From NCBI GenBank assembly GCA_009786125.1, contig WQTU01000136.1, positions 88 to 64,087 of the forward strand: DNA of 64,000 nt, read 5' to 3'. The position numbers and the translations under genes are program-made. Origin of the DNA: Spirochaetota bacterium (GTDB lineage: Bacteria; Spirochaetota; Spirochaetia; CADAEX01). Position 1 is the stretch's first letter. Every line of letters begins with the position of its first letter. This document shows, piece after piece, positions 1,286 to 62,411 of this stretch. Below the pieces are notes generated by a model. It was not told the DNA's origin. It was given only the letters and a program-made list of their open reading frames with translations, and did not search any database.

Positions 1286-1663
1286 TTAGGGTTTGAATTT
1301 CTGTATTTGTATGTTTAGTATAAATTTATAATGCTTGTCGTTTGCTGTCAACAAAGTCTCATTTCTTTCTAATACTGTTGCTGCTATCATGGCATCAGTT
1401 AACTCCAGTGAATGACTTAAGTTATAGTTTTCCACAAGATACATCGCGTAAGTTGATATAGTCTCATTAATCGGAATAATTTCTACACCCCATTTTTTTA
1501 ATTGCTTTTGCAAGATGCCCAGATCTTTCTTGTTTTGTAACCCTTGTATTAATTCTAAATATGTTATGACCGAAATTTTGAATGGAATATTATCGAAAAT
1601 TATTTTTTTGGCATGAGTGTTTCCTCGCAAGTACCAGATTAATACATCTGTATCAATTATCAA
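1286..1663 (-). CDS. vapC: PIN-domain toxin (VapC family)
   Basis: 125 aa. 'MIIDTDVLIWYLRG' N-terminus with acidic residues typical of PIN. Overlaps the upstream antitoxin gene by 11 nt. Confidence 0.85.
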   Translation of the reverse strand: MIIDTDVLIWYLRGNTHAKKIIFDNIPFKISVITYLELIQGLQNKKDLGILQKQLKKWGVEIIPINETISTYAMYLVENYNLSHSLELTDAMIAATVLERNETLLTANDKHYKFILNIQIQKFKP

Positions 1664-3800: not shown

Positions 3801-5972
3801 ATGAGTAATATAGAAAAGAACAAGTTCTTTCCGGATTTAAAAGAACACGCAAGCGAGGGCAGCAAGCCTTTCCCGTATGGAGAATTCGCGGAAATACGGA
3901 ATCAGCAAACAGGGGTGCGATACAGAAACTCCAGGCAGCTTAAAAGCGAAGAAATCGAAATACTTAAACAAAACTTGTGCGAAGCAGATGACTGGTCTTT
4001 AATATCTGTTACAGATCCATTTGATCCTTTGTTAATAAAAAGAACTGTTTTTAAGGGCATTGTCCGCATCGGGCGCTTGGAGAAAGGCATTATAAAGGAT
4101 AAGGACAGGGAATGCTGCTGCGGAATTTCAGACAGCTTTATAATATCATCAGACATAGGAGATTACTGCGCTATTCATAACAACAGATATATTTCTGCTG
4201 TTATTGCAGGTAACTATGTTATTTTATCGGACAATAACGAAATATATACTACAGAAGATGCAAAGTTCGGTAACTGTATTTTAAAAGAAGGCGAAGCTGC
4301 GGCAACTTTGCGAAAAATCAATCTTGTGAACGAAAAAGGGGGCAGAGCTATTTCTGCTTTTAGCGGCATTACAGGCGCAGATGTTTATCTCTGGGTAAAA
4401 CAGCGGGAATCAAAAGAATTTGTTTCGCGGCTGGAATCTTTTACTTGCAAAAGCTTTGATGCCAAAAGAGGTTATTACAGTTTTATCGATGACCATACTG
4501 TTATAAAAGGAACATCTTTAATAAGAAATATTATGACAGGAAGGAGCTGCAGAATAGAGAGAGCCACATGCGTTGATGATGTTACCATAAATTCTTCTGC
4601 TTTAAAGCCTGTATTGCTGGCTAATAACGTTGTTGTAAAAAAGGGAATTATTGGGGAAGGGTGTAGAATCGCAAATTCTTCTGTTGCAGAAGATTTTATT
4701 CTTGAGCCCGGAAGCTCGCTCGACAAGGGCGCGCGGTTTATCCACTCTTTTCTTGGAAGCTGTTCCAATGTTGCCTGCTGCGAAGTCATTAGCAGCTTTA
4801 TATATCCGTCTCACCAGCAGCATCATAACAACTCGTTTCTTATTGCATCTGTTGTAATGGGGCAGAGCAATATTGCAGCAGGTGCAACTTTGGGGTCGAA
4901 TCATAATAGTCGGGCAAATGACTGCGAAATGTGGGCAGGAAGGGGTTTCTGGCCGGGTCTTTGTTCTTCGATAAAGTTTAATTCTAAATTCGCGTCTTAT
5001 TGCCTTTTGGCTAAATCTGATTTTCCTTATGAGCTTAACATCTTTCTGCCTTTTGCTCTGGTAAATAACAATGTGTATGAGGACTCTCTTGAGATAATGC
5101 CTGCTTACTGGTGGCTTTATAATATGTATTCGCTGTTTCGCAACTACTTTAAATTCAAGGACAGGAGCCAAGGGCTGGATTCCATAAAAGGAGTTGAGTT
5201 TGATTTTATGGCGCCTGATACCGCAGAAGAGATTCTGTCTGCCATCTCTTTTATCGAAGATATTTGCAAATCAAATACCGGTGAAACTTCTTGCATTAAA
5301 ATCCCTGCGACCGGAATCGAAAATTCAAAGCGAAAAGTAAAGATTCTTTATCCTGATAAATCAAAAGCTGCTTATATGGAAATGCTTACCTTTTACTGCG
5401 GCAGTGTAATTTTTGAATTTATCGGGAAGTCCGGCGTTGCCTTAATCACTGCACAAATTTTGGAACATGAGCCAGCAGGTGTAAACAAAACTGCCGGGAA
5501 GTTGGATGATAACATCAGTCTAATTTTAAAAAGTAATTGCTCACAAGAAAGGGAGACGGAGTGGGTTAATGCGTGCGGCAGGCTGCTTCCGAAAAAATCT
5601 ATTGCAAATGCAGTAAAAGCTGTTCTGGGCGAAACAGAAACTGTTATTGAATCTTGGGAAGATATGCACGATTATTTTAATGAAGAGTTTGAATTGTATG
5701 AATCGAGAAAACTTTTTCATGCGCTCTCTATAGCTATGATGCTTTATAAAAAAGAAAAACCGGACCATGATCTTTTGAGTAACTTAAAAGCAGATTATGA
5801 AAAACTGCTTTTAAAAATCGAACAAGAGATAATCAAGAGCAGAAAAAAGGATTACGATGACCCTATAAGAAAAGCTCTTTTTTCAAATGAACAAGAAATG
5901 GAAAATGTGCTTGGGGTTTTGGAAAAAGATCCGGTTCTCGGCAGGTTTAAAGCGAAGTTTTCCCTGCGCTAG
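3801..5972 (+). CDS. Large conserved hypothetical protein, probably DUF4954-type (left-handed beta-helix-like)
   Basis: 723-aa ORF 18 nt after the SurA-like gene. 'LKSEEIEILKQNLCEADDWSLISV' and 'GSNHNSRANDCEMWAGRGFWPG' resemble DUF4954 as I recall it. Family assignment not verifiable here. Confidence 0.7.
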   Translation: MSNIEKNKFFPDLKEHASEGSKPFPYGEFAEIRNQQTGVRYRNSRQLKSEEIEILKQNLCEADDWSLISVTDPFDPLLIKRTVFKGIVRIGRLEKGIIKDKDRECCCGISDSFIISSDIGDYCAIHNNRYISAVIAGNYVILSDNNEIYTTEDAKFGNCILKEGEAAATLRKINLVNEKGGRAISAFSGITGADVYLWVKQRESKEFVSRLESFTCKSFDAKRGYYSFIDDHTVIKGTSLIRNIMTGRSCRIERATCVDDVTINSSALKPVLLANNVVVKKGIIGEGCRIANSSVAEDFILEPGSSLDKGARFIHSFLGSCSNVACCEVISSFIYPSHQQHHNNSFLIASVVMGQSNIAAGATLGSNHNSRANDCEMWAGRGFWPGLCSSIKFNSKFASYCLLAKSDFPYELNIFLPFALVNNNVYEDSLEIMPAYWWLYNMYSLFRNYFKFKDRSQGLDSIKGVEFDFMAPDTAEEILSAISFIEDICKSNTGETSCIKIPATGIENSKRKVKILYPDKSKAAYMEMLTFYCGSVIFEFIGKSGVALITAQILEHEPAGVNKTAGKLDDNISLILKSNCSQERETEWVNACGRLLPKKSIANAVKAVLGETETVIESWEDMHDYFNEEFELYESRKLFHALSIAMMLYKKEKPDHDLLSNLKADYEKLLLKIEQEIIKSRKKDYDDPIRKALFSNEQEMENVLGVLEKDPVLGRFKAKFSLR

Positions 5973-5974
5973 AT

Positions 5975-6062
5975 TGCGCCCCGCAACAAGTCCGGGATAA
6001 TAACATCCGTGTCGCGGCGCAGGACGCGGCCTGCTTCGCAATGCCGCAGATCCCGGGAGTTT
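5975..6062. repeat. GC-rich repeat module (family member E1)
   Basis: Starts 3 nt after the stop codon. 6023-6049 (GACGCGGCCTGCTTCGCAATGCCGCAG) matches 23597-23623 at 24 of 27 positions. 6004-6030 resembles the 22562/60434 module. Confidence 0.75.
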
Positions 6063-15366: not shown

Positions 15367-15460
15367 ATTTTATTCAACATTCTATAAATATCAAAAAAAA
15401 TAGTTTGATTTATTATTGTAGACACAATTTTTTCCAATTTAGTATATAATTTGGTATATT

Positions 15461-17674
15461 ATGGAAAGCATGGATTTGTTTTCATCTTCAATAAATAACA
15501 GAGAATTTCCCCTTGCAGCAAGAATGCGCGCCGAAACCCTTGATGATTTTATAGGGCAGGAACACCTTGTAGGAAAAGGCAGGCTTTTGCGCCGGGCAAT
15601 TCAGGCAGACCAGCTCTCATCTCTTATTTTTTACGGTCCGCCCGGGACAGGAAAAACAACCCTTGCCCAGATTATTGCAAAAACAACAAAGAGCGCATTT
15701 GTTACCATCAATGCTGTGTTATCCGGCGTAAAAGAGATAAGAGATGAAATTATCGAAGCGAAGAAGCGGCTCGAATTGCATGACAAAAAAACAATACTTT
15801 TTGTAGATGAAGTTCACAGGTGGAACAAAGCTCAGCAGGATGCCTTGCTTCCCTGGGTTGAAAACGGAACATTTATACTGATAGGAGCAACAACAGAGAA
15901 TCCTTTTTACGAGGTAAACTCTGCGCTCGTTAGCCGAAGCAGAATATTTCAGCTTCTGCCGCTTTCAAAAGAAAATCTCCTAAAAGCAGCAGCAAGAGCC
16001 CTTGCAGATAAAGAAAAAGGATATGGCAAATATAAAGTAGTATTTGAAGAAGGGGCGCTCGAACATATTGCAGACATTGCAAACGGAGATGCCCGAACCC
16101 TCTACAATGCTCTCCAGCTTGCAATCGAGACAACGCCAAAACAATTTCCACCGCCGGATGGCGAAATAATATATATAAGCATGGAGACAGCAGAAGACAG
16201 TATACAGCGGAAAGTTCTTCTTTATGACAAAGAAGGAGATTATCATTTTGACATTATAAGTGCATTTATAAAATCAATAAGAGGTTCTGACCCGGATGCA
16301 ACCTTGTACTGGCTTGCAAGAATGCTTGATGCAGGTGAAGATCCAAAGTTTATACTAAGGCGTTTGACTATTTCTGCAGCCGAAGACATAGGGCTTGCGG
16401 ATCCCAATGCGCTTGTAGTCGCCAATGCGGCAGCTCAGGCTTTTGAGCGCATTGGAATGCCGGAGGGGCAGATTATTCTCTCCGAAGCTGCTCTGTATCT
16501 TGCGTGCACAAAAAAGTCAAATTCTGTTCTGGCGATTTTTAATGCACTTAAAACAATAAAAGAAGAAAAGCACATGGAAGTACCGGCTAACATAAAGGAC
16601 TCTTCCAGGGACAAAGAAAGTTTTGGTCACGGCAAGAATTATCTCTACCCGCACGATTACAAAGAGCGCTGGGTTGCGCAGCAGTATTTACCCGATGCTC
16701 TAAAGGGCAAAGTTTTTTATGAGCCGGGCGACATAGGTTTTGAAGCAGAACTAAAGAAAGATATTTTCCGCAGAAGAGAAGCGCAAATAGAAGCCCAAAT
16801 GGAAAGAGATGATTTTAGCCAGGAAACCCTGACCTTTTCTCCTCCGGATAAAAAGAAAGATGAATGGTATAAACGAATCTCAGACAATAAAAATATAATT
16901 TTATCTGCTGTCCGTGAAAGAATTTTCTCGCAGGTTAATATAAACCGTCACGACAGAATTCTGATAACCAGCCGCGACAGGGGGCTTTTAATCTGGGAAG
17001 CAATAAGGCATGTGCCGGAAGGCGGAGTGTTTTATGTAAATAACGACAAACGCGACATAGAAATTATCGACAAGCACTCGATATATACCGAGAAAACAGA
17101 AAAACCAATATTGATTAACGAAAGCCCCGCAGATTACTTGCGTAACGAAAAAGAAACCGGAATCTATGATATTATAGCGGGGCGAAATCTGTTTTTAAAA
17201 CAGAGCAATGTCAAGCAAATATCAGAGAGGCTGTTTGCTCTTTTGGATGCAAAAGGCAGAATTTCGCTTGCAGAAAACCTGGCATCAAAATCTTCGAGAA
17301 TATCGCAATTTTTGGACAGGACTGTTTTTGAAGAAGGTGATTTTGATATTTTTTTGAATGCAGAAAAAACTGTTTATGAAGAAAGCAAATATGGAATATA
17401 TCTGGATACAGAGGGGCTGGAAAAAGTGCTCCATGAAACAGGGTTTAAAAAAATAAAATTCAGGGAAAAAGAGTGGTTTGAAACCCGTGTTATAAATAAA
17501 AACGACGTAGAAAAATGGTTTGACGAGTCGCTGGAAAGTTATGGCTCGATTCTTCTTTCTTTGGTCGAGGGGCATTTGTATGAGAGGGTAAAGGAGCAGG
17601 CATTAAAAACCCTGCCGGATAAAGAGATAAAGTGGAAAAGCACTTACCTTTTTGTCGCTGCGGGGAAGGAGTAG
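15461..17674 (+). CDS. rarA: Replication-associated recombination protein A (AAA+ ATPase) with ~290-aa C-terminal extension
   Basis: Walker A 'GPPGTGKTT', 'LFVDEVHRWNK', and the MgsA C-terminal block 'SDPDATLYWLARML..GEDP.FILRRL' up to ~aa 445. This is followed by an extra domain ('RILITSRDRGLLIWEAI..'). Confidence 0.85.
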   Translation: MESMDLFSSSINNREFPLAARMRAETLDDFIGQEHLVGKGRLLRRAIQADQLSSLIFYGPPGTGKTTLAQIIAKTTKSAFVTINAVLSGVKEIRDEIIEAKKRLELHDKKTILFVDEVHRWNKAQQDALLPWVENGTFILIGATTENPFYEVNSALVSRSRIFQLLPLSKENLLKAAARALADKEKGYGKYKVVFEEGALEHIADIANGDARTLYNALQLAIETTPKQFPPPDGEIIYISMETAEDSIQRKVLLYDKEGDYHFDIISAFIKSIRGSDPDATLYWLARMLDAGEDPKFILRRLTISAAEDIGLADPNALVVANAAAQAFERIGMPEGQIILSEAALYLACTKKSNSVLAIFNALKTIKEEKHMEVPANIKDSSRDKESFGHGKNYLYPHDYKERWVAQQYLPDALKGKVFYEPGDIGFEAELKKDIFRRREAQIEAQMERDDFSQETLTFSPPDKKKDEWYKRISDNKNIILSAVRERIFSQVNINRHDRILITSRDRGLLIWEAIRHVPEGGVFYVNNDKRDIEIIDKHSIYTEKTEKPILINESPADYLRNEKETGIYDIIAGRNLFLKQSNVKQISERLFALLDAKGRISLAENLASKSSRISQFLDRTVFEEGDFDIFLNAEKTVYEESKYGIYLDTEGLEKVLHETGFKKIKFREKEWFETRVINKNDVEKWFDESLESYGSILLSLVEGHLYERVKEQALKTLPDKEIKWKSTYLFVAAGKE

Positions 17675-21268: not shown

Positions 21269-22540
21269 ATGTATTTTTCAAGGCCAATGAATCTAGGCAT
21301 TATTGGTTGTCCGGGGGCGGATCATTTTACGAATGATATTGTTCACAATCTTAAGAGATATTACAGCCGCAAACACCAGCAGCATATTGATCTTATATCA
21401 AAAACGTATGGAATTGAAAAAAATGAGATCGAAAGAAAGATCAATTTATTAAAAGATATTCAAAATGCCAATCTTTGGGAAGATCTCAATAGATATCCGG
21501 ATATTGAAAAATATCGAGTCCCTGAGTTTAAAGTTCCTGTAAAATATACAAGATTTGCCAATGGCGAATACAAAGCAGATATAAAAAAATCTGTAAGAGG
21601 AATGGATGTTTACATTGTCCAGGATGTTGAAAATCATTATGGCATAGATATAAATGAGGACGGCAAAGAACATAAACTCTCTGTAAACGACCATGTTTTT
21701 ATGCTGTTTGCGACAATTGATGCAGTAATACAATCCGGAGCAAGCTTTGTATCTGTTGTTGTGCCTGCTTATCCGTATGCGCGCCAGCATAAACGCAAAG
21801 GAAGAGAAGCTCTTACAGCAGCTCTTTTTGGAAGAATAATCGAAAACATGGGAGTCGCCCGAATAATCACTCTAGATATACACTCCAAAGAAATAGAAAA
21901 CTGTTTTAACAAGTGCAGAATGGAAGATCTTCATGCATCATATCAGATAATAAAAATGCTTTTTAACTTTATTGATGTAGAGAAATCAAATTTAGTTATT
22001 GTTTCGCCTGACTCAGGAGCTGTTGAAAGAAACAAGTTTTTTGCTGATAACCTCAAAAAACCGCTTGCCATGCTTTACAAAGAAAGAGACTATTCCAAAA
22101 TTTCCAGCGATGCAAAAGCAAGCAATATTACAGAGATGAAGCTGCTGGGAGATGTAAAGGGAAAAACAGTTTTTATGGCAGACGATATGGTAGGGACCGG
22201 CGGAACAATGATTGAAGCAATGCGGCGTCTTCGGGAACTTGGCGCAGAAAAAATTATTTGCGCAATAAGCCTTCCGCTTTTTACAGGCAATGCTATTGAA
22301 AATTTTGATAAAGCTTACAGAGACGGTTACTTCGATAAAGTAATAGGAACAAATGCCGTGTATCATACAGATGCGCTTTACGCAAAAGAGTGGTATGTAA
22401 GCGCCCCGATATCAAACCTCTTTGCCCGTGTTATTTCAAGATTGCATCAGCAGAGAACTTTAACTCCATTGATTGACAACAGCGAAATAATTCAGCGCCT
22501 GTTAAGCGACCCTCAAATTACTTTTTCTTATGGCTTATAA
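21269..22540 (+). CDS. prs: Ribose-phosphate pyrophosphokinase (long form)
   Basis: 'RFANGEY', 'PAYPYARQHKR', 'ITLDIHS', and PRPP-binding loop 'MADDMVGTGGT'. Confidence 0.85.
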   Translation: MYFSRPMNLGIIGCPGADHFTNDIVHNLKRYYSRKHQQHIDLISKTYGIEKNEIERKINLLKDIQNANLWEDLNRYPDIEKYRVPEFKVPVKYTRFANGEYKADIKKSVRGMDVYIVQDVENHYGIDINEDGKEHKLSVNDHVFMLFATIDAVIQSGASFVSVVVPAYPYARQHKRKGREALTAALFGRIIENMGVARIITLDIHSKEIENCFNKCRMEDLHASYQIIKMLFNFIDVEKSNLVIVSPDSGAVERNKFFADNLKKPLAMLYKERDYSKISSDAKASNITEMKLLGDVKGKTVFMADDMVGTGGTMIEAMRRLRELGAEKIICAISLPLFTGNAIENFDKAYRDGYFDKVIGTNAVYHTDALYAKEWYVSAPISNLFARVISRLHQQRTLTPLIDNSEIIQRLLSDPQITFSYGL

Positions 22541-24077
22541 AGTTCTTCCCGGCGCTTCATTGCGACATCTCTGTCGCTGCGCCGGGCGCAACGTCCATGT
22601 TGCAGGCGTTGATATTGGAACCTCTTCGATAAAAGCCGGTATAATAGATAAAAAAGGAATTCTTGCATCGTACCGGAAAATTCGCTACGAAGAAATTGGC
22701 GGAGATATTTATAACTGGAAAACTGATTTTTGGGTTAATTCCCTTAAAAAAGCGCTAAAAGAGCTCCCGCTGCTCGAAAAAGCAGAAGCAGTTGTTTTTA
22801 GCGGAAGCGGCCCTTCTGTGATACCTATATGCCGGGACGGCAATTATATGGCCGAGTCTCTATTGTGGCTCGATAATAAAAAAACTGATATAGCCGATAA
22901 CATTTCTTTTTTTCTTCCCAAAATAGCCTGGTATAAAGAAAACAGAAAAGATATTTATGCGAATGTTTCTTGCTTTCTTACGCTATCCGGCTTTTTTCCC
23001 TATTTGCTGACAGGAGAATTAAAAGAACCGCTTCCGAATAAAGAATTTACTCCTTATATATGGACAGAAGATTCCATAAAAAAAGCAGGGCTTGAGCTTA
23101 CTCTTTTTCCGCAATTTGTATTTGCCGGGAATCTTGTGGGTTATGTCTCCGAAAAAAGCAGCAGGGAATTTTATTTGCGAAAAGGGATTCCTGTGTTTGC
23201 CGGAGCCAGCGATTACCTTATGGCTCTTTTGGGAACAGGCGCGCTTTTTGAAGGAGCTGTCTGCGATAGGGCAGGAACTTCAGAGGGTATTAATTATTGC
23301 ACAAAAAAAAATGTAAAAGCAGATACCCTTAGAATACTACCGCATATAATAGAAGATTTTTATAATGTTTCCGGAGTAATTGATTCTTCCGGAAAAAATT
23401 TTAGCTGGTTTAAAAAAATATCAGGACAGGAAGAAAAGTCTTATTCAGAACTTATTGGGGAAATATCTAAGGTTATACACAATGACGACTCGCTCTATTT
23501 TTTACCCAGCGCTCGCTTTGCACGTGCTTTGCACGTTTCGCGGCGCGCCAAGGCACTGCGTCCGTACTCACAAGGGGCACTTTGCCACTGCGCCGGGACG
23601 CAACCTGCTTCGCAATGCTGCAGTCCGGATCTGGGAAGAAATTCTTTGTGGAAGTATAACAACGGCGCATTCACAGGGCTTGAGGTAATGCCGGAAGCAG
23701 GTGCTGCTGTTTTAAAAGCAATTGGTTTTTCTGTATGCGAGGTTATAAGAATTATGGAATCACATTCTCTTGCTGTGGAAGAAATAAGGCTGTCCGGCGG
23801 ACAGGCGGAAATCCCTTTGTGGAACCAGGTAAAAGCAGATATGACAGGAAAAAAACTGCTTGCCCCAGAGGTAAAGGATAGCGAGCTTATAGGGTGTGCG
23901 TGCGTTGCATTTACAGGACTTGGCGTATACAACTCCCTGACGCAAGCATCGCAGGAAATGGTGCGTATAAAAGATGTCTATACGCCTGATGCAAAAGCTT
24001 ATTCCGGGTTCTGTAAGCTCTTTGAAGATTATTCTGATATTTTGCGCAAGTTTGAGCTTTTTGCAAATTCTTTGTAG
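22530..24077 (+). CDS. FGGY-family carbohydrate kinase carrying two in-frame GC-rich repeat insertions
   Basis: 'GVDIGTSSIKAGI' N-terminal motif and C-terminal 'RLSGGQAEIPLWNQVKADMTG'. Start at ATG 22530 or TTG 22560. Confidence 0.8.
   Translation: MAYKVLPGASLRHLCRCAGRNVHVAGVDIGTSSIKAGIIDKKGILASYRKIRYEEIGGDIYNWKTDFWVNSLKKALKELPLLEKAEAVVFSGSGPSVIPICRDGNYMAESLLWLDNKKTDIADNISFFLPKIAWYKENRKDIYANVSCFLTLSGFFPYLLTGELKEPLPNKEFTPYIWTEDSIKKAGLELTLFPQFVFAGNLVGYVSEKSSREFYLRKGIPVFAGASDYLMALLGTGALFEGAVCDRAGTSEGINYCTKKNVKADTLRILPHIIEDFYNVSGVIDSSGKNFSWFKKISGQEEKSYSELIGEISKVIHNDDSLYFLPSARFARALHVSRRAKALRPYSQGALCHCAGTQPASQCCSPDLGRNSLWKYNNGAFTGLEVMPEAGAAVLKAIGFSVCEVIRIMESHSLAVEEIRLSGGQAEIPLWNQVKADMTGKKLLAPEVKDSELIGCACVAFTGLGVYNSLTQASQEMVRIKDVYTPDAKAYSGFCKLFEDYSDILRKFELFANSL
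22562..22608. repeat. GC-rich repeat module (E3) inside the FGGY kinase N-terminus
   Basis: The 47-mer GCGACATCTCTGTCGCTGCGCCGGGCGCAACGTCCATGTTGCAGGCG matches the reverse complement of 60434-60480 at 41 of 47 positions, counted by hand. Confidence 0.85.
23508..23633. repeat. GC-rich mosaic repeat (E4) inserted in frame in the FGGY kinase
   Basis: 23512-23537 resembles the 3' module of 61775-61897 (TCGCTTTGC.CGTGCTTTGCACGT). 23597-23623 matches 6023-6049 at 24 of 27 positions. It encodes about 41 atypical Cys/Arg/Ala-rich residues. Confidence 0.8.
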
Positions 24078-24179
24078 TCGGTGATTGGCCCCGGACGAAC
24101 TCTGGAGTGAAAAAAGTAATTTTTGGATATGGAAAAAAATTACGCCAAAATATATATTTTAAAATATTATATAATCTTA

Positions 24180-24208
24180 TTGACAAAAATTTTCAAATTT
24201 GTTACTCT
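24180..24208 (+). promoter_or_regulatory. Candidate sigma70 promoter (TTGACA-17-TACTCT) ahead of tRNA-Thr/rpmG
   Basis: Hexamers and 17-nt spacing read from the sequence. The tRNA starts at 24247. Confidence 0.4.
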
Positions 24209-24246
24209 TTGCTCTCGTTCTCCGTTCGACTTGTCGGGACAGGTAT

Positions 24247-25486: not shown

Positions 25487-25509
25487 AAGATAAAATTATT
25501 TTTTATTTA

Positions 25510-25676
25510 CCGATGAAGCGAGAACCGCGGACAAGCGAAGCTTGCACATGGTCGAGCGAGGAGGTAAACAAAAGGTTCGCGTGAGCGTACCTCGCTGCAA
25601 GCAGCGGAATCCGCGCCAAAGGCGCGGTGGGCGCAGGGCAAGCCCTGCGGTCGCTTTGCACGTAATACCTTTTATT
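25510..25676. repeat. Full-length GC-rich repeat element (E5), intergenic nusG-rplK
   Basis: The 5' end CCGATGAAGCGAG, the middle GAGCGAGGAGGTAAACAAAAGGTTCGCG, and the 3' end GGTCGCTTTGCACGTAATACCTTTTAT are shared with 61775-61897 and partly with 52216-52282 and 36969-37212. Contains several perfect 7-bp hairpins. Confidence 0.85.
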
Positions 25677-25830
25677 CTGATAATTATCAAAATAATTTGT
25701 TTTTTTCGGTAAGTTTTACCGTTTAACGATGGGAGTTTTCAAATGAGAGGTTGTCAATAATGTAGACACATTACTGACAAGCAACTTTAGCTTGGCGCAT
25801 TTTTGCAGCTTTTAAGCGAAAAAATGCTAT

Positions 25831-27036: not shown

Positions 27037-27573
27037 ATGGCAGAATATGTAACAAAGGTACAGCCATCCAAAGTAGAGGCTGTTGCTGAGATAAAAGATA
27101 AAATTGAAAATGTAAATGATTTTGTTGTAACTGACTACAGGGGGCTTACTGTAGAGCAAATAACAGGTTTAAGAAGAAAATTAAGAGAATTAAGCACAGA
27201 GTACAAAGTTGTTAAAAACAGATATGCAAAAATTGCTTTTAACAATAAGGGTATTGCAGGTCTTGATAATCTTCTTGTTGGTCCTTCTGCGATTGCAATG
27301 GTAAAAGGCGATGCTAGTTCTGCGGTGAAAGCAATTTTTGATTTTACTAAAGAGGCGCCTGTGCAGGTAAAGGGCGGCTATATAGACGGCAATATATTTG
27401 ATATGCAGCAACTTGAGGCTTTTTCTAAGCTTCCTACGAAAATGGAGCTTATATCGAGCCTTATGGGTACTATGAAGGCGCCTATACAAAATCTTGTTTT
27501 TGTTCTTAATGCTCCTATGCAAAAGCTTGTTAGAACAATACAGGCTGTTGCTGACCAGAAGGAAGGAAAGTAA
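27037..27573 (+). CDS. rplJ: 50S ribosomal protein L10
   Basis: 'VVTDYRGLTVEQITGLRRKLRE' and operon position. Confidence 0.95.
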   Translation: MAEYVTKVQPSKVEAVAEIKDKIENVNDFVVTDYRGLTVEQITGLRRKLRELSTEYKVVKNRYAKIAFNNKGIAGLDNLLVGPSAIAMVKGDASSAVKAIFDFTKEAPVQVKGGYIDGNIFDMQQLEAFSKLPTKMELISSLMGTMKAPIQNLVFVLNAPMQKLVRTIQAVADQKEGK

Positions 27574-27670
27574 GCGCTTCGAAGTCCCCTTCGCTGGCGA
27601 AGAGGTGGCGACGAAGTCGGCGGGGTAGTGGAGCCCCGGTTAATTCGGTAAAAGGCAAAAGCCTTTGTTT
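27574..27670. repeat. GC-rich structured segment (E6), intergenic rplJ-rplL, loosely related to the repeat family
   Basis: Begins right after the rplJ stop. 'GGCGACGAAGTCGGCGGGG' resembles the family 5' motif CGACGAAGCGAGGG. Hairpins CTTCGC/GCGAAG, CGGGG/CCCCG and AAAGGC/GCCTTT. Confidence 0.45.
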
Positions 27671-36968: not shown

Positions 36969-37212
36969 ACGACGAACGAGGGTCGCGGGCAAGCAGAGCT
37001 TGCACATGACCGAGTGAGGAAGTGATTGAAAAGCTGAAAGGCTTTTTCTGTTCTCCGACGAAGCGAGGGTCGCGGGCAAACGAAGTTTGTACATCCGCCG
37101 AATAAGTGAGAGTCGCGGGCAGCTTGCTTGCACACAAAGTACCCCTTGCGGGTGTGATCGAACGATGAGGTGGACAAAGGGGCTATGCTCCTTGTGAATC
37201 GGGCTAGGAGGA
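36969..37212. repeat. Cluster of GC-rich repeat units (E7) directly after rpsG
   Basis: Two or three tandem units: CGACGAACGAGGGTCGCGGGCAAGCAGAGCTTGCACATGACCGAGTGAGGAAG (36970-37022), CGACGAAGCGAGGGTCGCGGGCAAACGAAGTTTGTACAT (37057-37095), and GAGAGTCGCGGGCAGCTTGCTTGCACA (37109-37135). Confidence 0.85.
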
Positions 37213-52453: not shown

Positions 52454-55366
52454 ATGACAATTATAAAAAAAGCTGCAATAAGTTTAGTTATTACTCTGAT
52501 CGTATTCTCAGCTTTCACAATAATATCTTTTTTTACTCTCTTTGATCTTATAGAATCAAGATTCTATAACAAAAAAGTGCTTACCGAAGTAGAAAACAGA
52601 ATTGAAAACATCATAATTGGGATAGAAGAATATAAAAATGATCGCATTGAAATACTTACTGCAGTTTCAAATGAAGCAGCCATAAGAAACAGTTTTCTTA
52701 TAAATCAAAGCAGAGAAGACATCTTTCAGAGAGAAAATATAATAAAATCCTTGATTGAGCGAAGAGTGGATTTTGATTTTATCAGAGTTATTGATGATGC
52801 CGGGAGAATCCACTACAGCAGCAATCCTATTGACCTGCAATCTGCTGACCCCACAAGAATATCTTATAGAATACTGGATGCGCAGTCTATTGAAAGATAT
52901 AGAGAAATTATCGAGCGCGCAGGTGATATCCCGGCCATTTTTTTTGACATTCAAGACCACAATCTGTTTGTAGCTTCTGTTTACAGCCATATAGGAATAA
53001 GAAGAGGCACAATTTTAGTATATCTTGCACCAAATGATTTAAGAAGTTTTCTTGCCCGAAAAAATGTTATTGAAAGAAATATTGTTATAAGGTATTTGGC
53101 TCATAATAAAATTGTTTTTAATATACTTGATGGCAACATCTCTATTCTGGAAGAACTAAAAGCTTATTGGACAGCCGGAGAAATAAGAAACCCTCATAAT
53201 CTCTATTCTGATGCTGCCGGAACTGCCTTTTCTGTTGTTACAAAAAGATGGGGCGATGGCTTTATAGGATATGTTATCCCCGATCATCTTATAAAAATTA
53301 ATGCTATTTATAAATATATTCTTCTCTTTTCGGTATTTTCAATTACATTTATACTTTCTTTCCTGCTGATGAATATAAGGCAGGATCAGGTAGTTGTTAT
53401 AGCTGACAGGGTAAAACGATTCCAGATAAATTTTCTTATTGAATATCTTGAAAATAAAAGCGAAGTCGAATGGAGAGTATGGAAAAAAGAACTGGAAAGC
53501 CGCAAAGAAGAATTACGCAGGGAATTTAAGAAAGGTATAAGAAGATTAGACGAAGATAAAGATAAGATTGTAAATGATCTTGTTGATAAAAGCTGGGACG
53601 AGATAATAAGCCTTCTCGCAGGACATCTGGAAAAAAAATCTGAAAGTAAAAATTTAGTTACAAATCTCCAGGTTGATAATATTGAAGAAATAATCAGAAA
53701 AATTATTGCAAGTGAAAATAATATACGAAGAAAAGATATCAATACTGTTTCAAGCCCGCAAGTTGTTGCACAAGTTGCCGAGGTCGCAGGCGCGGATGCG
53801 GAAGAAGAACTTGAGGAAATAGAGGAAGCGGATGAGGTCGCAGACGCGGTTGAGGAAGCAGAGGAACTCGAAGACGCGGACTTAGAAGAAATAGAGGAAG
53901 CGGAAGCGGTCGAAGTCGCAGTAGAAGAAGAGCTGGAAAGAATCGAAGAAGCTGCAAAAGTTTCAGTTAGGGAAGCAGACAAAGAATCTGCAACAGCAGA
54001 ACCTTTATTGGATGAAAATAAAAAATTCGAAGAGCTTATAACTACTTATAAAGATTATGGCGAAGAAATTGCAAACGCAAAAGAAATTCAAAATACTGTT
54101 GAAGAAATTGAAAGGACTATTGTTCCAATTACCGATGACCAAGATGAAGCAGATCTGAAAAAACTTACATCATTCAGAGATGGATTAGAAAACGATGATA
54201 CAAACATTCCTGAATTAATAGAAGAAGAACTTCTGGACGAAGAAGATATGGCAGATCTCGAAGATCTTGACATTGAAGAAGCAGAAATGCTGGAAGAAAA
54301 ATCAGTATATGAAAAAGTACCTAAAAAATATGTTTCTGAAACTGAAAAAATAGAAAACCTTGAAACAATAGGGGATTTTAAACCACTTGTTATAGACAGT
54401 GAATTCGAAGAGCTTGAAGTTCTTGAAAAAACTGAAGCAGATGAAGATGATGACGATAAAGCCAGAATAGTAGAATACATAAGAAATGACATAGTTGGTG
54501 TATATAAGCCGAATTATATGCCTGATTTTTTTTATTCCAGGAAAAAAACAGAAAAAAAAGAAGAAGATTTTGCAGGCGAAATTTCAGAGGAAAAAATCGA
54601 AACTTGCGGCAGCCCTAAAGCATCTTCTGCAAAACATCTTGAAACATTAAAAAAAGAAGGGCTTCTGGAAATATGGACAATAAAAGATGTTATTAAAATA
54701 ATAGAAGAAAAAAAAGAATCTCCTGTAATAGAAAAAGATGGAATTCTTAAAATAAGTGAAAATCTGTATAACGATGGCAATACTTCAAAAAATGCTGACG
54801 AAGATAACGAAATAGGTATTTCAGATATCTTTTTTGATGATGCAATAGATTTACCTGTCTTTTCAGATGCATCTGCAGATGCTCCTGTTGCTGACGAAAA
54901 ATATGCTGATATAAAAATTAGTGAAGAATATGGTTTCTATGCTGATATTTTCTATGATCACAATGAAAATAACCCTATTGAAATTATAAAAATTTTATTT
55001 GAAATAACAAAAAAAATGGGTTCTTCTTTCGGTGTTATATTAGTACAAAATGATAAAAAGTATTATCCGGAAGTATCTGTAGGGCTTTTTAACAAAGATT
55101 ACCCGGAACTACTTAGGATAAATAAAGATTCTTATCTTTTTAGAGAATTTCTTGCAGAGAGAAAAATTTTCTTTATAAAGACCGATATTACTGAACTAGA
55201 AGAGCTTAATACCAAATTTTCACCGAATGATCTTAAAAAAATCAATGGTCTTCTGTTTGCTCCAATGAGATATAAAGGAAAGCAAGCCTATTTTGTGGCT
55301 GCCCCGGACGCAAAAGACTTCTATCTGGATAGCGTTATACTAAAAGTTAAAAATTTCCAAAAATGA
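52454..55366 (+). CDS. Large membrane-anchored acidic protein: TM, extracytoplasmic domain, TM, Glu/Asp-rich region, and possible GAF-like C-terminus
   Basis: 970 aa. TM segments near aa 8-30 and ~285-305. Extreme acidic low-complexity region aa ~435-700. The C-terminal ~170 aa looks globular, and the GAF-like guess is weak. Confidence 0.75.
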   Translation: MTIIKKAAISLVITLIVFSAFTIISFFTLFDLIESRFYNKKVLTEVENRIENIIIGIEEYKNDRIEILTAVSNEAAIRNSFLINQSREDIFQRENIIKSLIERRVDFDFIRVIDDAGRIHYSSNPIDLQSADPTRISYRILDAQSIERYREIIERAGDIPAIFFDIQDHNLFVASVYSHIGIRRGTILVYLAPNDLRSFLARKNVIERNIVIRYLAHNKIVFNILDGNISILEELKAYWTAGEIRNPHNLYSDAAGTAFSVVTKRWGDGFIGYVIPDHLIKINAIYKYILLFSVFSITFILSFLLMNIRQDQVVVIADRVKRFQINFLIEYLENKSEVEWRVWKKELESRKEELRREFKKGIRRLDEDKDKIVNDLVDKSWDEIISLLAGHLEKKSESKNLVTNLQVDNIEEIIRKIIASENNIRRKDINTVSSPQVVAQVAEVAGADAEEELEEIEEADEVADAVEEAEELEDADLEEIEEAEAVEVAVEEELERIEEAAKVSVREADKESATAEPLLDENKKFEELITTYKDYGEEIANAKEIQNTVEEIERTIVPITDDQDEADLKKLTSFRDGLENDDTNIPELIEEELLDEEDMADLEDLDIEEAEMLEEKSVYEKVPKKYVSETEKIENLETIGDFKPLVIDSEFEELEVLEKTEADEDDDDKARIVEYIRNDIVGVYKPNYMPDFFYSRKKTEKKEEDFAGEISEEKIETCGSPKASSAKHLETLKKEGLLEIWTIKDVIKIIEEKKESPVIEKDGILKISENLYNDGNTSKNADEDNEIGISDIFFDDAIDLPVFSDASADAPVADEKYADIKISEEYGFYADIFYDHNENNPIEIIKILFEITKKMGSSFGVILVQNDKKYYPEVSVGLFNKDYPELLRINKDSYLFREFLAERKIFFIKTDITELEELNTKFSPNDLKKINGLLFAPMRYKGKQAYFVAAPDAKDFYLDSVILKVKNFQK
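53775..53950 (+). repeat. Imperfect tandem coding repeats (period ~72 nt) encoding EEIEEA(D/E)-type acidic units
   Basis: GAGGAAATAGAGGAAGCGGATGAGGTCGCAGACGCGG (53813-53849) versus GAAGAAATAGAGGAAGCGGAAGCGGTCGAAGTCGCAG (53885-53921). Confidence 0.7.
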
Positions 55367-58747: not shown

Positions 58748-61396
58748 TTATAGGTTACATTTTCCCGCAAGACTTGATGCAGTTTTTACAGCTTCAACGC
58801 CATCCTTCGAGTAAGCTGCGCCTATTGATTCTGCCCACTCTTTTGTAACAACTGCTCCGCCAACCATAAAGCTGGCTGTTATGCCTTCTTTTTTTGCAAG
58901 TTCAATAACTTCCGGCATTTTTACCATTGTTGTTGTCATAAGCGCAGAGAGCGCAATTATGTCCGGCTCAAACTCTTTTGCATTTTTTATAATCTCGTCT
59001 GCTGGTACAGATTTACCTAGGTCTTTTACATCAAAGCCATAATTGCGCAGCATGAGTATTACAATATTTTTTCCAATGTCGTGTATATCTCCCTCGACAG
59101 TTGCAAAAAGTATTTTGCCTTTTGCACCGGCATTCTTGTCTTCGAGTTTGGGCTCAAGGACAGTGAAGCCTTTTTTCATTGTCTCTGCGCTTGCAATGAG
59201 CTGCGGCAAAAAATACTTTTTCTTGTCGTAAAGCTCGCCCACATGCATAATTGCGGGAATCATTATTTTTTCGAGAATATCTTTTGGCGCTGTGTTGAGC
59301 TCAAGTGTTTTCTGCACATGAGTTATTATGTCATCGCGGTTGCCGGAAACAATGCAGTCGAAGACTGGGCTTGTTGCTGCGTTTGCACCAGCGCTTGCGT
59401 CTGCGTCTGCGGCTGTGTCTGCACTTGCGTCCGGGCTTGCGCCAGCGCCTTTCGCAGCAGGGTGGGGCATGGGCTGTATGCTGTTGGGCATAATGCCGGG
59501 GTCCGGGTTTGCCGAAGCAAATTTAAGATACGCCAGCGCATCAACATCTTTGCCGGTTAGCAGGTCGGATGCATGTTTTGCCCACATTAGCTCGATTTCT
59601 CCGGGATTTGCAATTACATGGGTCATTCCATACGCAGCAGCCATTGAAAGAAAAGCAGAGTTTATTCTTTTTCTCTCCGGCAGCCCGAAAGAAACATTAG
59701 AAAGCCCGGCTAACGAAGAAAAGCCGTTTTCTGCAGCCCATTTTATTGTTTTAAGTGTTTCCAGCGGAGCCTGCTGGTTCGATGAGACAGTCATAACAAG
59801 CCCGTCTATAATTATATCGTTTTTTGTAAAGCCCAGTTTTTCTGCCTCATTATAAACTTCTTTTATAATTTCGATTCTTCGTTCTGCTGTCTCGGGGAGT
59901 TCGTTGTCCGCAAGAGGCAGCAGAACGAACATTGCGCCGTATTTTGCCGCAACAGGCAGGAGTTTTTCGATTTTTTCTTTTTCCCCGGATATTGAATTTA
60001 TTAAAGCTCTTCCGGGATATTTTCTGAGAGCTGCTTCTACTACTTCTGGCGACGCAGAATCTATTACAAGCGGCAGTTTGCACCAAGGCGCAAGCATGTC
60101 GATTATTTTAATTACTGTATTTTTTTCGTTAATGCCGGGCATCCCTGCGTTTATGTCTAACATGCTTGCGCCGGAGGCTTCCTGTTCCATTGCCATTTTG
60201 CGTACCAGCGACAGTTTGCCCTCAAGCATTTCTGATTGAAGCCTTTTCTTGCCCGTAGGATTTATGCGCTCGCCGATAACCTGCAGCCCTGACTTTTTGT
60301 TTACGATAAGGGCTTCGGTTGCGCTCGAAAGTGCAACAATATCTTTGGCAAAAAAGCAGTTCTTCCTGGTTTTGACCTTGACTTCGCCGCGGGCTTCGGT
60401 TTGGGTTTGCGGAGCTGCGGCTTGGGGTAAAAGCGGCTGCAACACGGATGTTGCGCTCGGCGCAGCGACATGGATGTCGCAATAAGGCTCCGGTTTGTAT
60501 TGCGCAAGCTCTTTTGCAAGCAGTTTTATGTGCTGCGGAGTTGTGCCGCAGCAGCCGCCCATAAGATTGATTCCCGCGCTTGCAAAAGATTCTGCGAAGG
60601 ATGCAAATTCTTCCGGTCCCATTGGAAAAATGGTTTTGCCGGATTCTATTCTTGGCATTCCGGCATTTGGCTTTGCAACCAGAGGAACTTTCGAAATAGG
60701 TTTAAGACGTTCTATTATTTTTAGCATTTCTGCAGGGCCGGAAGAGCAATTGCAGCCAACAGCATCTGCTCCAAGGCTTTGAAGCGTTATTAGCGCAGCT
60801 TCCGGCGATGTTCCGTTAAGCGTTCTGCCTTCCGGCTCATAAGTCATTGTTACTATCGTAAAAGCATCAGTGAGTTCTTTAACGGCGATTAACGCTGCAC
60901 GCGCTTCCTGAATATCCATCTGCGTTTCTATTACAAAAAGATCGCAGCCGCCGTCCAGCAATCCTCTTGCCTGACGCTTAAACATTTTTACAGCATCTTC
61001 AAACCTGATTTCCCCAAAAGGCTCGATAAAATGCCCTATGGGTCCAATATCGCCTGCAACAAGCGTATTTTCTCCTCCTGCTTTTTTTGCCGCCTGCGCA
61101 AGAATCGAATTTATATTTTCTACATCGTCCCGGCCGTATAACGCAAGTTTATAAAAATTCGCCCCAAATGTGCATGTATAAATTATGTCCGACCCTACCT
61201 CGGAATAGCTTTTATAAATTGCCCTTTGGATTTCCTTGTTCTCGCTTGCCCATATTTCCGGGCACACTCCTGCGGGCATTCCTTTTTTCTGGAGTTCTGT
61301 TCCTGTTGCTCCGTCGAGCACAAGAATTTTGTTTTTAAGCAATTCCGAAATTACTTTTTTATCTGTCATATATTCCCTTCTTAGTTTATTAAACAA
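58748..61396 (-). CDS. metH: Cobalamin-dependent methionine synthase lacking the AdoMet activation domain
   Basis: 882 aa. Hcy-methyltransferase N-terminus ('LDGATGTEL', 'GGCCGTTP'), pterin-binding domain, and B12-binding domain ('GDIHDIGKNIV'). Two GC-rich low-complexity linkers. Confidence 0.92.
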   Translation of the reverse strand: MFNKLRREYMTDKKVISELLKNKILVLDGATGTELQKKGMPAGVCPEIWASENKEIQRAIYKSYSEVGSDIIYTCTFGANFYKLALYGRDDVENINSILAQAAKKAGGENTLVAGDIGPIGHFIEPFGEIRFEDAVKMFKRQARGLLDGGCDLFVIETQMDIQEARAALIAVKELTDAFTIVTMTYEPEGRTLNGTSPEAALITLQSLGADAVGCNCSSGPAEMLKIIERLKPISKVPLVAKPNAGMPRIESGKTIFPMGPEEFASFAESFASAGINLMGGCCGTTPQHIKLLAKELAQYKPEPYCDIHVAAPSATSVLQPLLPQAAAPQTQTEARGEVKVKTRKNCFFAKDIVALSSATEALIVNKKSGLQVIGERINPTGKKRLQSEMLEGKLSLVRKMAMEQEASGASMLDINAGMPGINEKNTVIKIIDMLAPWCKLPLVIDSASPEVVEAALRKYPGRALINSISGEKEKIEKLLPVAAKYGAMFVLLPLADNELPETAERRIEIIKEVYNEAEKLGFTKNDIIIDGLVMTVSSNQQAPLETLKTIKWAAENGFSSLAGLSNVSFGLPERKRINSAFLSMAAAYGMTHVIANPGEIELMWAKHASDLLTGKDVDALAYLKFASANPDPGIMPNSIQPMPHPAAKGAGASPDASADTAADADASAGANAATSPVFDCIVSGNRDDIITHVQKTLELNTAPKDILEKIMIPAIMHVGELYDKKKYFLPQLIASAETMKKGFTVLEPKLEDKNAGAKGKILFATVEGDIHDIGKNIVILMLRNYGFDVKDLGKSVPADEIIKNAKEFEPDIIALSALMTTTMVKMPEVIELAKKEGITASFMVGGAVVTKEWAESIGAAYSKDGVEAVKTASSLAGKCNL
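60434..60480. repeat. GC-rich repeat module inside the metH Hcy/pterin linker
   Basis: The reverse complement GCGACATCCATGTCGCTGCGCCGAGCGCAACATCCGTGTTGCAGCCG matches 22562-22608 at 41 of 47 positions. It is translated in a different frame from that copy. Confidence 0.85.
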
Positions 61397-62150
61397 TTCC
61401 TGTTAATGCAATAACTGATTTTTGCGGTATAAGCAAAAAGCTTTCTGTTATATTAACTTCTATTTTTTTCATTTCAAGCAAATTGTAAAAGATTTTTTGT
61501 GTTTCAAGCGATAGGTCTCCGTATCCGGGAGAAAATCTTTTGGAAAAAAGCTTTTCTGATTTTCTTATAAGCTCTTTGCTGTAAAGAGACATAATGTAAT
61601 CCAGCCCCCTGTCTGCAATTTCGCCTGCTGCTGCGTCAAGAACAACAGCTTTGGTCATGTTTTCCTTCTGTTCTTTCTCTATAAAATCCGCTATTTCTTT
61701 GCCGCATGTTATTCCCATCAGCAGAATTTTATTCGCTCCGGAGATGAATTTGCATAATGAGCTGCTTATTATTTCCGAATGAAGCGAGTGTCGCGACGTG
61801 CTTGCACGCTCGTGACCGAGCGAATGAGGAAACAAAGGGTCGCGCAGGGCTCTGCCTTGCGGTCGCTTTGCGCGTGCTTTGCACGTAATACCCTTTATCT
61901 CAATTTTTTCTGATGGGGCTGCCTGACTTGCAGCAGGATATATCAGAATTTTATCCTGATCCGCGACTTCAAAATTACTTTCCAGCATTACGCCTTTTAA
62001 GTTTACAAGAGAGGCTGTCTCATCAATCCATGCTACAATCTCTTTTCTGCTTGATTCAGCAAGTTCTGTTTCTTTTTGTCTATACCCCAGCCGAGAGAAA
62101 ATAACTCTATAATCTGGCTTGGGCAATATATTATTGATAAACCTGAGCAT
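61389..62150 (-). CDS. Stand-alone methionine synthase activation-domain protein with in-frame GC-rich element
   Basis: The C-terminal 'RFSPGYGDLSLETQKIFYNLL' is typical of Met_synt_B12. 8-nt overlap with metH. Carries a 41-codon foreign-looking insert. Confidence 0.8.
   Translation of the reverse strand: MLRFINNILPKPDYRVIFSRLGYRQKETELAESSRKEIVAWIDETASLVNLKGVMLESNFEVADQDKILIYPAASQAAPSEKIEIKGITCKARAKRPQGRALRDPLFPHSLGHERASTSRHSLHSEIISSSLCKFISGANKILLMGITCGKEIADFIEKEQKENMTKAVVLDAAAGEIADRGLDYIMSLYSKELIRKSEKLFSKRFSPGYGDLSLETQKIFYNLLEMKKIEVNITESFLLIPQKSVIALTGIV
61775..61897. repeat. GC-rich repeat element (E9), 123 nt, in frame within the activation-domain gene
   Basis: CCGAATGAAGCGAG...GGTCGCTTTGCGCGTGCTTTGCACGTAATACCCTTTAT. 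Both termini and the central AAACAAAGGGTCGCG are shared with 25510-25676. Confidence 0.85.
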
Positions 62151-62350: not shown

Positions 62351-62411
62351 GCTGATTGCCCATTCGGGATGCTTTGCGATTCTCGATTGAATAAATCAGC
62401 GGTTTCCTAGA
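62351..62411. promoter_or_regulatory. Copy 2 of the palindromic motif, left arm split by a 21-nt GC-rich insertion
   Basis: 62379-62411 ATTCTCGATTGAATAAATCAGCGGTTTCCTAGA matches 2402-2434 at 32 of 33 positions. The left-arm remnant GCTGATT lies at 62351-62357, followed by GCCCATTCGGGATGCTTTGCG. Confidence 0.5.

Follow-up and report, generated by a model that had tools for sequence, protein, structure and literature searches.

The stretch of DNA analysed here, referred to below as the window, is 64,000 nucleotides (nt) long and comes from a Spirochaetota bacterium (assembly GCA_009786125.1, contig WQTU01000136.1, positions 88 to 64,087). It includes a gene for an FGGY-family carbohydrate kinase, which lies in the order prs-FGGY-rpmG-secE-nusG common to the window and its relatives. 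An in-frame, GC-rich insert of 40 codons interrupts a loop of the encoded enzyme, and this insert is our main subject. The insert is not an isolated oddity but one of four in-frame insertions of a repeat family, found in three genes within the 64 kb. Coordinates are collected in Table 1.

The kinase was compared with its orthologues, which were obtained by a protein search of 5.8 billion sequences and are named as Spirochaetaceae metagenome-assembled genomes. We take these spirochaetes to be of the termite-gut type, a label assumed from the sample series; a search for the JGI sample number yielded nothing on the habitat. Two protein alignments were used, one of 18 sequences and one of 121 (the window kinase and 120 homologues). 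At the DNA level the window was aligned with four syntenic orthologous loci (L004, L007, L010 and L011), in which the gene order is radical-SAM, prs, FGGY, ..., rpmG, secE, nusG, rplK. L010 and L011 belong to nearly the same genome, so the four loci represent three distinct relatives.

Table 1. Positions of the kinase gene, its inserts and the copies of the repeat family in the window
Feature	Position	Strand	Basis or context
FGGY-family carbohydrate kinase, 515 amino acids (aa)	22530..24077	+	Open reading frame (ORF), Pfam, AlphaFold, gene order
Second kinase insert, type II unit, 57 nt = 19 codons (PGASLRHLCRCAGRNVHVA)	22548..22604	+	Between MAYKVL and GVDIGTSS
In-frame GC-rich mosaic insert, 120 nt = 40 codons, residues 328-367	23511..23630	+	DNA alignment with four orthologous loci
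Module alpha: (G)CGCTCGCTTTGCACGT, then tandem duplicate GCTTTGCACGT	23509..23536	+	Same module terminates long type I elements
Middle stretch of the insert, 38 nt	23537..23574	+	No convincing copy in the sequence examined
Type II-like unit: hairpin 1 (GGCA-CTT-TGCC), linker CTGCGCCGGG, hairpin 2 (GCAAC...GCTGC), GCAG	23575..23636	+	Aligns with five other type II copies
In-frame deletion of 9 nt between 23687 and 23688, removing K-H-G	23685..23690	+	DNA alignment
Intergenic copy A	5975..6062	+	Begins directly after the stop codon of ORF 3801..5972
Intergenic copy D, long type I element ending in GGTCGCTTTGCACGTAATACCTTTTAT	25505..25680	+	nusG-rplK spacer
Intergenic cluster E, two to three tandem type I-like units	36970..37157	+	rpsG-fusA spacer
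MetH insert, about 43-46 aa, about 130 nt, holding type II unit F (60434-60493)	60353..60493	-	Homocysteine-pterin linker
Type I element G in a 253-aa MetH-activation-domain-like protein, 123 nt, adding 41 aa (KGITCKARAK...HSLHSE)	61773..61895	-	Orthologue alignment

The kinase gene and its insert

The window protein passes the Pfam cut-offs for both domains of the family, FGGY_N with 53.6 bits (cut-off 28.8) and FGGY_C with 44.9 bits (cut-off 27). The FGGY_C match starts late, leaving the first 111 positions of the model unmatched. An AlphaFold2 model based on the 121-sequence alignment has a mean per-residue confidence (pLDDT) of 87.2 and a predicted template-modelling (TM) score (pTM) of 0.87. 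Foldseek matches the model to LsrK, XylB and GlpK (TM score about 0.7, E values of 1e-30 to 1e-24), and the model and its matches agree in giving the protein the two-domain actin-like ATPase fold of FGGY kinases. The equivalog cut-offs of NCBIfam are missed, the best score being for XylB (126 against 380 bits), with 120 against 528 bits for the AI-2 kinase LsrK. Judged by these comparisons, the gene is that of an FGGY-family kinase without an assignable substrate. The orthologues are about 459 aa long, as against 515 aa in the window.

The neighbourhood differs in one respect. All four relatives have a PAS-domain histidine-kinase gene between FGGY and rpmG (L004 11518-13827, L007 8915-11314, L010 7454-9910, L011 6234-8672), which is missing from the corresponding interval of the window (24078-24240). 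In L007, an FGE-sulfatase gene also lies between the FGGY gene and rpmG.

The DNA alignment fixes the ends of the insert. The host codons TTA CCC AGC (L-P-S) precede it and CTG GGA AGA (L-G-R) follow it, and opposite the insert there is a gap of exactly 120 nt in all four loci. The original prediction, made from the window sequence, had proposed an in-frame, lineage-specific insertion at the FLPS / ...W...GAF.GL hairpin of an FGGY kinase. The sequence is as it was quoted, it does lie at that hairpin, and the insertion stands. Its proposed extent, 23508-23633 or about 41 codons, needs trimming to 40 codons, the flanking Ser and Leu being those of the host. The inserted peptide reads ARFARALHV...CCSPD. 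A homologous segment in related kinases, which the original prediction had named as a reason to abandon the idea, was found in none of them: the ARFARALHVSRRAKALRPYSQGALCHCAGTQPASQCCSPD segment is absent from all 120 homologues in the 18- and 121-sequence alignments. From P326 to L384 the window kinase has 59 aa, where 117 of the 121 sequences have 19 aa. The only other long version of this stretch, in the homologue P0008, results from an unrelated 33-aa tandem-duplication insert, 11 residues further on.

The insert is also set apart by composition, being far more GC-rich than its flanks, as had been claimed. Its GC fraction is 0.633, whereas the 111 nt before it have 0.342, the 110 nt after it 0.445 and the whole window 0.399. 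Local values lie between 0.63 and 0.70 across 23500-23636.

The gene is not peculiar to one assembly. The same protein of 515 aa, without any difference, is encoded by a 122,618-bp contig in ENA (ERZ27257345 k141_4582885) and by Logan contigs of SRR5247064, where it is seen in two samples, and the ENA and Logan DNA of the kinase gene is 100% identical to that of the window. The 515-aa sequence is also present in NCBI, JGI and MetaClust. The recovery of an identical gene from independent assemblies makes an assembly artefact, the other reservation raised in the original prediction, very unlikely. The insertion is real, and its site is empty in the relatives.

A dispersed family of GC-rich modules

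The repeat family emerged when the GC-rich islands of the window were set against one another and against contigs from a pattern scan of JGI metagenomes. The scan, made with the type I core pattern, returned four loci only (L047-L050), which are too few for a census. Two types of element are distinguished. The basic type I unit is about 95 nt long and has the form TTATTCGCCGAC..AGCGAGGGTCGCGGGCAAGCAGAGCTTGCACATGACCGAGCGAGGAGGCGAACAAAAGG-loop-CCTTTTAT. In long type I versions, extra GC-rich modules lie between the AAAAGG and CCTTTT arms, and the end is GGTCGCTTTGCACGTAAT. Type I copies are found in the nusG-rplK and rpsG-fusA spacers and on contigs L047-L050. The type II consensus is ..GCGACATCCGTGTCGC-TGCGCCGGGC-GCAACGTCCATGTTGC-AG, with two small hairpins inside, and the window has type II copies at 5996-6062, 22548-22604 and 60434-60493 besides the one in the 40-codon insert. 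In the six type II sequences compared, 87% of the cells in hairpin columns are paired, against 17-58% when the partners are slid, and three of the hairpin pairs are altered on both sides, for example from GCAAC/GTTGC to GCGGC/GCCGC. With only six sequences, these figures are suggestive, but not proof, of hairpins kept through compensatory changes. The two types can be physically linked, since in L050 a type II unit is joined directly to a truncated type I element. Modules on other metagenome contigs are 90-100% identical and lie mostly between genes.

The 40-codon insert can be read in terms of these elements. It starts with module alpha, which over 28 nt (23509-23536) is 93% identical to 61859-61886 and to L048 8498-8525, both of which share the GCTTTGCACGT duplication, and over 20 nt is 90% identical to 25644-25663 and L050 9670-9689. 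It ends with a type II-like unit, in which 23596-23623 is 89% identical to 6022-6049 and the second hairpin is a variant seen also at 5996-6062. Two recurrent modules had already been recognised in the original prediction. The first, TCGCTTTGCACGTGCTTTGCACGT, does recur, although at 61863-61886 (1 mismatch) rather than at 61866-61887 as first stated. The second, GACGCAACCTGCTTCGCAATGCTGCAG, was found again exactly where it had been placed, at 6023-6049, with 3 mismatches. Neither gave any match in 100 dinucleotide-preserving shuffles. For the middle region only a weak match came up, in which 23566-23584 is 84% identical over 19 nt to 37135-37153 read in reverse complement (E = 3.6). On these alignments the insert is a chimera of repeat modules, and the description of it as a mosaic is accurate. 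It is not a single long palindrome, and as a whole it folds no better than shuffled sequence. At gathering thresholds Rfam recognises only tRNAs and has no family for the insert or the repeat elements, and a promoter and terminator scan found nothing within the insert.

Intergenic copies form three clusters in the window and two in the adjoining 16 kb of the contig, in addition to those on L048 and L050, and they often begin right after a stop codon. About four of ten clusters in the roughly 80 kb examined are intragenic. The 3' part of copy A is the closest relative of the 3' module of the insert, and its segment 5976-6020 is 96% identical to L048 1892-1936. Copy D terminates in a terminator-like AAAAGG...CCTTTTAT hairpin, and the final 30 nt of cluster E are 100% identical to L050 3927-3956. 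A related type I unit (15394-15431) lies in the same nusG-rplK spacer of L004, whose syntenic proteins are about 73-92% identical to those of the window. The presence of a type I element in this spacer in both genomes suggests that the copy is old, or that it has some role at that position.

Searches further afield found little. A scan of a genome collection for the pattern of the type I 3' end yielded 34 isolated matches, all unrelated and due to chance (Mesorhizobium and others), and in viral contigs each of four module patterns gave nothing or one unrelated match. No transposase, including any of the RAYT type, was found in the roughly 80 kb of contig by Pfam on 25 window ORFs and the precomputed labels of the flanking genes. 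In view of the recurrence of its modules, the insert likely belongs to a dispersed, modular, GC-rich repeat family of short hairpins.

The other three in-frame insertions differ in their hosts and sites. One is in the kinase itself, near the N-terminus. Orthologues begin with MNDKVLAVDIGTSS or M(N/x)DKVLAVDIGTSS, whereas the window kinase begins with MAYKVL-PGASLRHLCRCAGRNVHVA-GVDIGTSS. The inserted DNA, 22548-22604, matches 60437-60483 in reverse complement with 89% identity and L050 9778-9821 with 91%. In the AlphaFold model, strand beta-1 (residues 23-29), which sits just before the phosphate-1 motif, is rebuilt from the last residues of this insert, VHVAG, in place of KVLA. If the model is correct, the insert is in effect an N-terminal extension.

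The two remaining insertions are in the MetH gene (ORF 58748..61396, minus strand) and in the adjacent gene, for a 253-aa protein resembling the MetH activation domain. The MetH insert is absent from 17 orthologues and the insert in the 253-aa protein from 18. The latter shares the duplicated alpha module with the 40-codon insert and occupies a hypervariable loop, where other orthologues carry other inserts. Thus P0131 (with DDVVGNQ repeats), P0138 (with a 57-aa triple repeat) and P0126 have unrelated inserts of their own at or near the same loops. Together with the tandem duplication in the kinase P0008, these indicate that loop expansion at such sites is recurrent in the group. MetH also has a GC-rich, low-complexity linker between its pterin and B12-cap regions (59354-59519, minus strand; ..PDASADTAADADASAGANAATS..), which is hypervariable in length among orthologues and of which no repeat copy was found.

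Entry into coding sequence appears to be eased by the reading properties of the modules. Stop trinucleotides make up 5.1% of the window, but the 40-codon insert and the N-terminal unit are each stop-free in five of six frames, so that a host frame easily survives. The peptides encoded differ from copy to copy. The type II units B and F are read in registers one base apart, and opposite strands of the alpha module are translated in the kinase and in the 253-aa protein. A search with the insert peptide (43 aa) against 1.84 billion representative proteins gave no credible relative. The single weak match (E = 3e-4), to a 2240-aa protein with six matched stretches, was not accepted as kinship of domains. 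An intein or intron was rejected as well, because the insert is too small (40 aa, 120 nt) and its ends are Ala...Asp. As far as the translated copies tell, no conserved peptide is encoded by the family.

The host loop and the fate of the kinase

The original prediction had put the insertion in the core of the enzyme. The kinase does carry the insertion, but the site is a loop that joins two strands of domain II. In the AlphaFold2 model of the window kinase, only residues 1-7 and 337-377 are modelled with low confidence, the insert having a pLDDT of 25-42 and the remaining fold exceeding 90; the 40-residue insert is predicted to be disordered. The loop is also the least certain part of an insert-free orthologue. 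In the model of P0002 (pLDDT 92.5), the ten-residue block of lowest confidence is 311-320, with 62 compared to more than 85 elsewhere, and this block is the loop that hosts the insert in the window. The corresponding part of the glycerol kinase of E. coli, VVPAF-TGLGAPYWD, is not known to belong to the residues listed as contacting ligands.

These results lead to the following explanation. A copy of a dispersed hairpin-module repeat, built like a REP/BIME (repetitive extragenic palindrome/bacterial interspersed mosaic element) or a MITE (miniature inverted-repeat transposable element), would have landed in the FGGY kinase gene of an uncultured Spirochaetaceae bacterium with an AT-rich genome. 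Because the length of the insert is a multiple of three and its sequence nearly free of stops, the reading frame would have been kept, and ordinary translation would yield a kinase with an extra surface loop of 40 residues in domain II, probably disordered. A second member of the family would have done likewise at the N-terminus. Insertions may well arise regardless of frame, with selection allowing only those of 3n length, free of stops and in tolerant loops, to persist. We consider this explanation as a whole, namely insertion of a repeat copy, retention of the frame and tolerance of the loop, to be likely.

Several observations weigh against it. The host loop is fixed at 19 aa in 117 of the 121 homologues, so its tolerance of an insert cannot be assumed. 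The 9-nt deletion is unique to the window kinase and removes a His present in 93% of the 120 homologues, and residue 276 is Asp (G276D) at a position that is 97% Gly. The junctions, CCCAGC|GCTCGC...CCGGAT|CTGGGA, have neither terminal inverted repeats nor a target-site duplication; no direct repeat is present, the only symmetry being a 5-nt inverted match, CCCAG/CTGGG, in the flanks, and no transposase was found that could be held responsible. For the central 38 nt of the insert no copy was identified in the sequence examined, and the insert as a whole folds no better than shuffles (z = -0.78 as RNA, +0.29 as DNA). Finally, no variant lacking the insert turned up in the population.

The most serious alternative is that the kinase gene is dead or dying, the inserts and the 9-nt deletion having inactivated it so recently that the frame, helped by stop-free repeats, is still open. 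Three unusual indels in one gene are suspicious, the more so as two of them alter segments that have one and the same length in 117-119 of the 121 homologues. (From L384 to A393, where the deletion lies, 119 sequences have 13 aa and the window kinase has 10 aa.) The loss of the conserved His and the G276D change point the same way. The locus has moreover lost genes, in that the PAS histidine-kinase gene of the four relatives is missing, and with repeats that are stop-free in five of six frames, an open frame is a weak sign of selection. However, all three indels, the two inserts and the deletion, are multiples of three, and the 515 codons are open in spite of the overall frequency of stop trinucleotides. 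Of 88 positions with a conservation of 90% or more among the 120 homologues, the window kinase retains 81, much like its ten nearest orthologues, which retain 78-83 of 84-86. Nor has it diverged faster than its neighbours: its identity to the four relatives is 73-76.5%, compared to 75-80% for Prs and 75-79% for the radical-SAM protein, while all three proteins are 82-85% identical among the three distinct relatives. In AlphaFold the whole fold is kept at high confidence, and MetH, an enzyme that is likely needed, bears an insert of the same kind. The conserved positions and the unaccelerated divergence indicate that the kinase is probably still functional. Between tolerance of the loop and inactivation, which the original prediction had left undecided, the conservation tests favour tolerance. 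We therefore prefer a tolerated loop to recent inactivation with reasonable, though not full, confidence, and regard a dead or dying gene as unlikely.

It is far less probable that the insert has been co-opted as a functional protein module, for example as a metal-binding or redox-sensing regulatory loop. The idea comes from the richness of the peptides in Cys and His. The insert has four Cys and two His in 40 residues (CHC-x9-CC) and the N-terminal insert two of each in 19 residues (H-x-C-x-C), and both inserts are identical across independent samples. But the palindromes of the repeat, rich in TGC and GCA, yield Cys codons as a matter of course. The peptide has no homologues and lies in a region predicted to be disordered, and elsewhere the modules are intergenic or are translated from another frame or strand.

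The remaining alternatives hardly deserve belief. Short GC-rich repeats can mislead assemblers, and all the data are metagenomic, but an artefact or chimera would have had to arise identically in different assemblers and sources (the ENA k141 contig, the unitig-based Logan contigs, NCBI and JGI) and to place its junctions exactly at codon boundaries with the frame kept.

In some yeast mitochondria, GC-rich "byp" elements are bypassed in translation. The insert, as a GC-rich, hairpin-prone element in an AT-rich gene, may bring that case to mind, and by analogy the mature protein might lack the insert through RNA excision or translational bypass; but all four intragenic copies are 3n long and stop-free in the host frame, which is unnecessary if they are skipped, and with no Rfam match, no intein or intron features and folding no better than shuffled sequence, such removal is scarcely credible.

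If the kinase with its tolerated loop is active, it provides a natural test of insertion tolerance in the domain II hairpin of FGGY kinases, and indicates that proteins of an AT-rich genome can gain loops from GC-rich, stop-poor repeats without a conserved peptide. The case draws its interest from the density of the insertions, two in one kinase and four in 64 kb, one of them in a loop that is normally invariant in length. There is also a practical side, in that such inserts inflate protein length, break Pfam matches and can mislead annotation and clustering. The 90% cluster of the window kinase is represented by a 29-aa fragment.

Comparison with known repeats, and other features of the window

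In-frame insertion of repeats is a known phenomenon, and what is new is the host group. The Rickettsia palindromic elements (RPEs) are repeats of about 100-150 bp that have entered numerous unrelated genes with the frame kept, at sites considered to suit the protein fold (Ogata et al., 2000, Science 290:347, and Ogata et al., 2002, Genome Res. 12:808, as summarised in PMC10969869; see also PMC3184786). Each RPE family has a conserved peptide, read in one frame and orientation. The family described here resembles RPEs in consisting of short, hairpin-prone repeats that are found both between genes and in frame inside unrelated genes, with four intragenic copies in three genes of 64 kb. The sites may likewise be compatible with the fold, the copy in MetH lying in an interdomain linker and that in the 253-aa protein in a hypervariable loop, but the kinase loop has a fixed length in 117 of the 121 homologues. 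Unlike RPEs, however, the modules are read in differing frames and strands with no conserved peptide, and the copies are mosaics of smaller modules, duplicated and variously combined. The host is also different, a member of the Spirochaetaceae, and the likeness is one of description, not of sequence comparison. RPEs are functionally the closest known case, but the want of a conserved peptide keeps the present family outside them.

For the colonisation of enzyme genes in frame by small repeats, Rickettsia is the best documented case, and the evidence from elsewhere is anecdotal. In architecture, the family resembles the REP/BIME mosaics. In enterobacteria and pseudomonads, such elements consist of imperfect palindromes, rich in GC and 15-40 nt long, that are joined with linker motifs in mosaic clusters, and REPs are extragenic by definition. 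Here also GC-rich modules with putative hairpins are arranged in mosaics, often just past stop codons and in operon spacers. But four copies are inside ORFs, the genome background is AT-rich, and no RAYT (REP-associated tyrosine transposase, an IS200/IS605-type Y1 transposase) is encoded among the genes of the roughly 80 kb of contig.

Bacterial MITEs (ERIC, BOX, Correia, QMITE1 and the Anabaena MITEs) are small, non-autonomous repeats, some of which form in-frame fusions in the interior of a gene or at its ends (PMC10969869; PMC3184786). The kinase junctions differ from theirs in lacking terminal inverted repeats and a target-site duplication. A further parallel is offered by yeast mitochondria, whose mobile GC clusters are palindromic modules in a very AT-rich genome that insert into each other and occasionally in frame, as in var1. 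This parallel is an analogy only, to an organellar and eukaryotic system, and the likeness lies in GC-rich modules in an AT-rich genome.

We found no paper in the literature on such repeats in termite-gut or other treponemes. The present spirochaetes, taken to be of the termite-gut type, may conceivably harbour an undescribed family of stop-poor GC-rich hairpin modules, usable in any frame and duplicated and joined into mosaics, that enter coding sequence about as often as RPEs do in Rickettsia, a proposal that we put forward with considerable doubt. If true, such a family would be a general source of new enzyme loops, often rich in Cys and His.

The window has other repeated or unusual features. 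A separate, AT-rich dispersed repeat of 33 nt, ATTCTCGATTGAATAAATCAGCGGTTYCCTAGA, occurs at 2402-2434, at 62379-62411 and at L048 8614-8644, with 97-100% identity between copies. A PIN-toxin ORF (1286..1663, minus strand) and a PhdYeFM-type antitoxin gene are flanked by 34-nt inverted repeats (1109-1142/1989-2022, 91% complementary). In the spacer between rplJ and rplL, a segment of 87 nt (27565-27651) reaches 70% GC and is unmatched elsewhere in the sequence examined. An MgsA-type AAA+ protein of 737 aa (15461-17674), whose Pfam domains end at residue 435, has a C-terminal extension of about 300 aa without a family match. Finally, a 970-aa ORF (52454..55366), labelled TP_0593_N in precomputed Pfam data, contains an acidic tandem-repeat tract (53759-53930) with a periodicity of 6-24 nt (GAGGAAG/GACGCGG).

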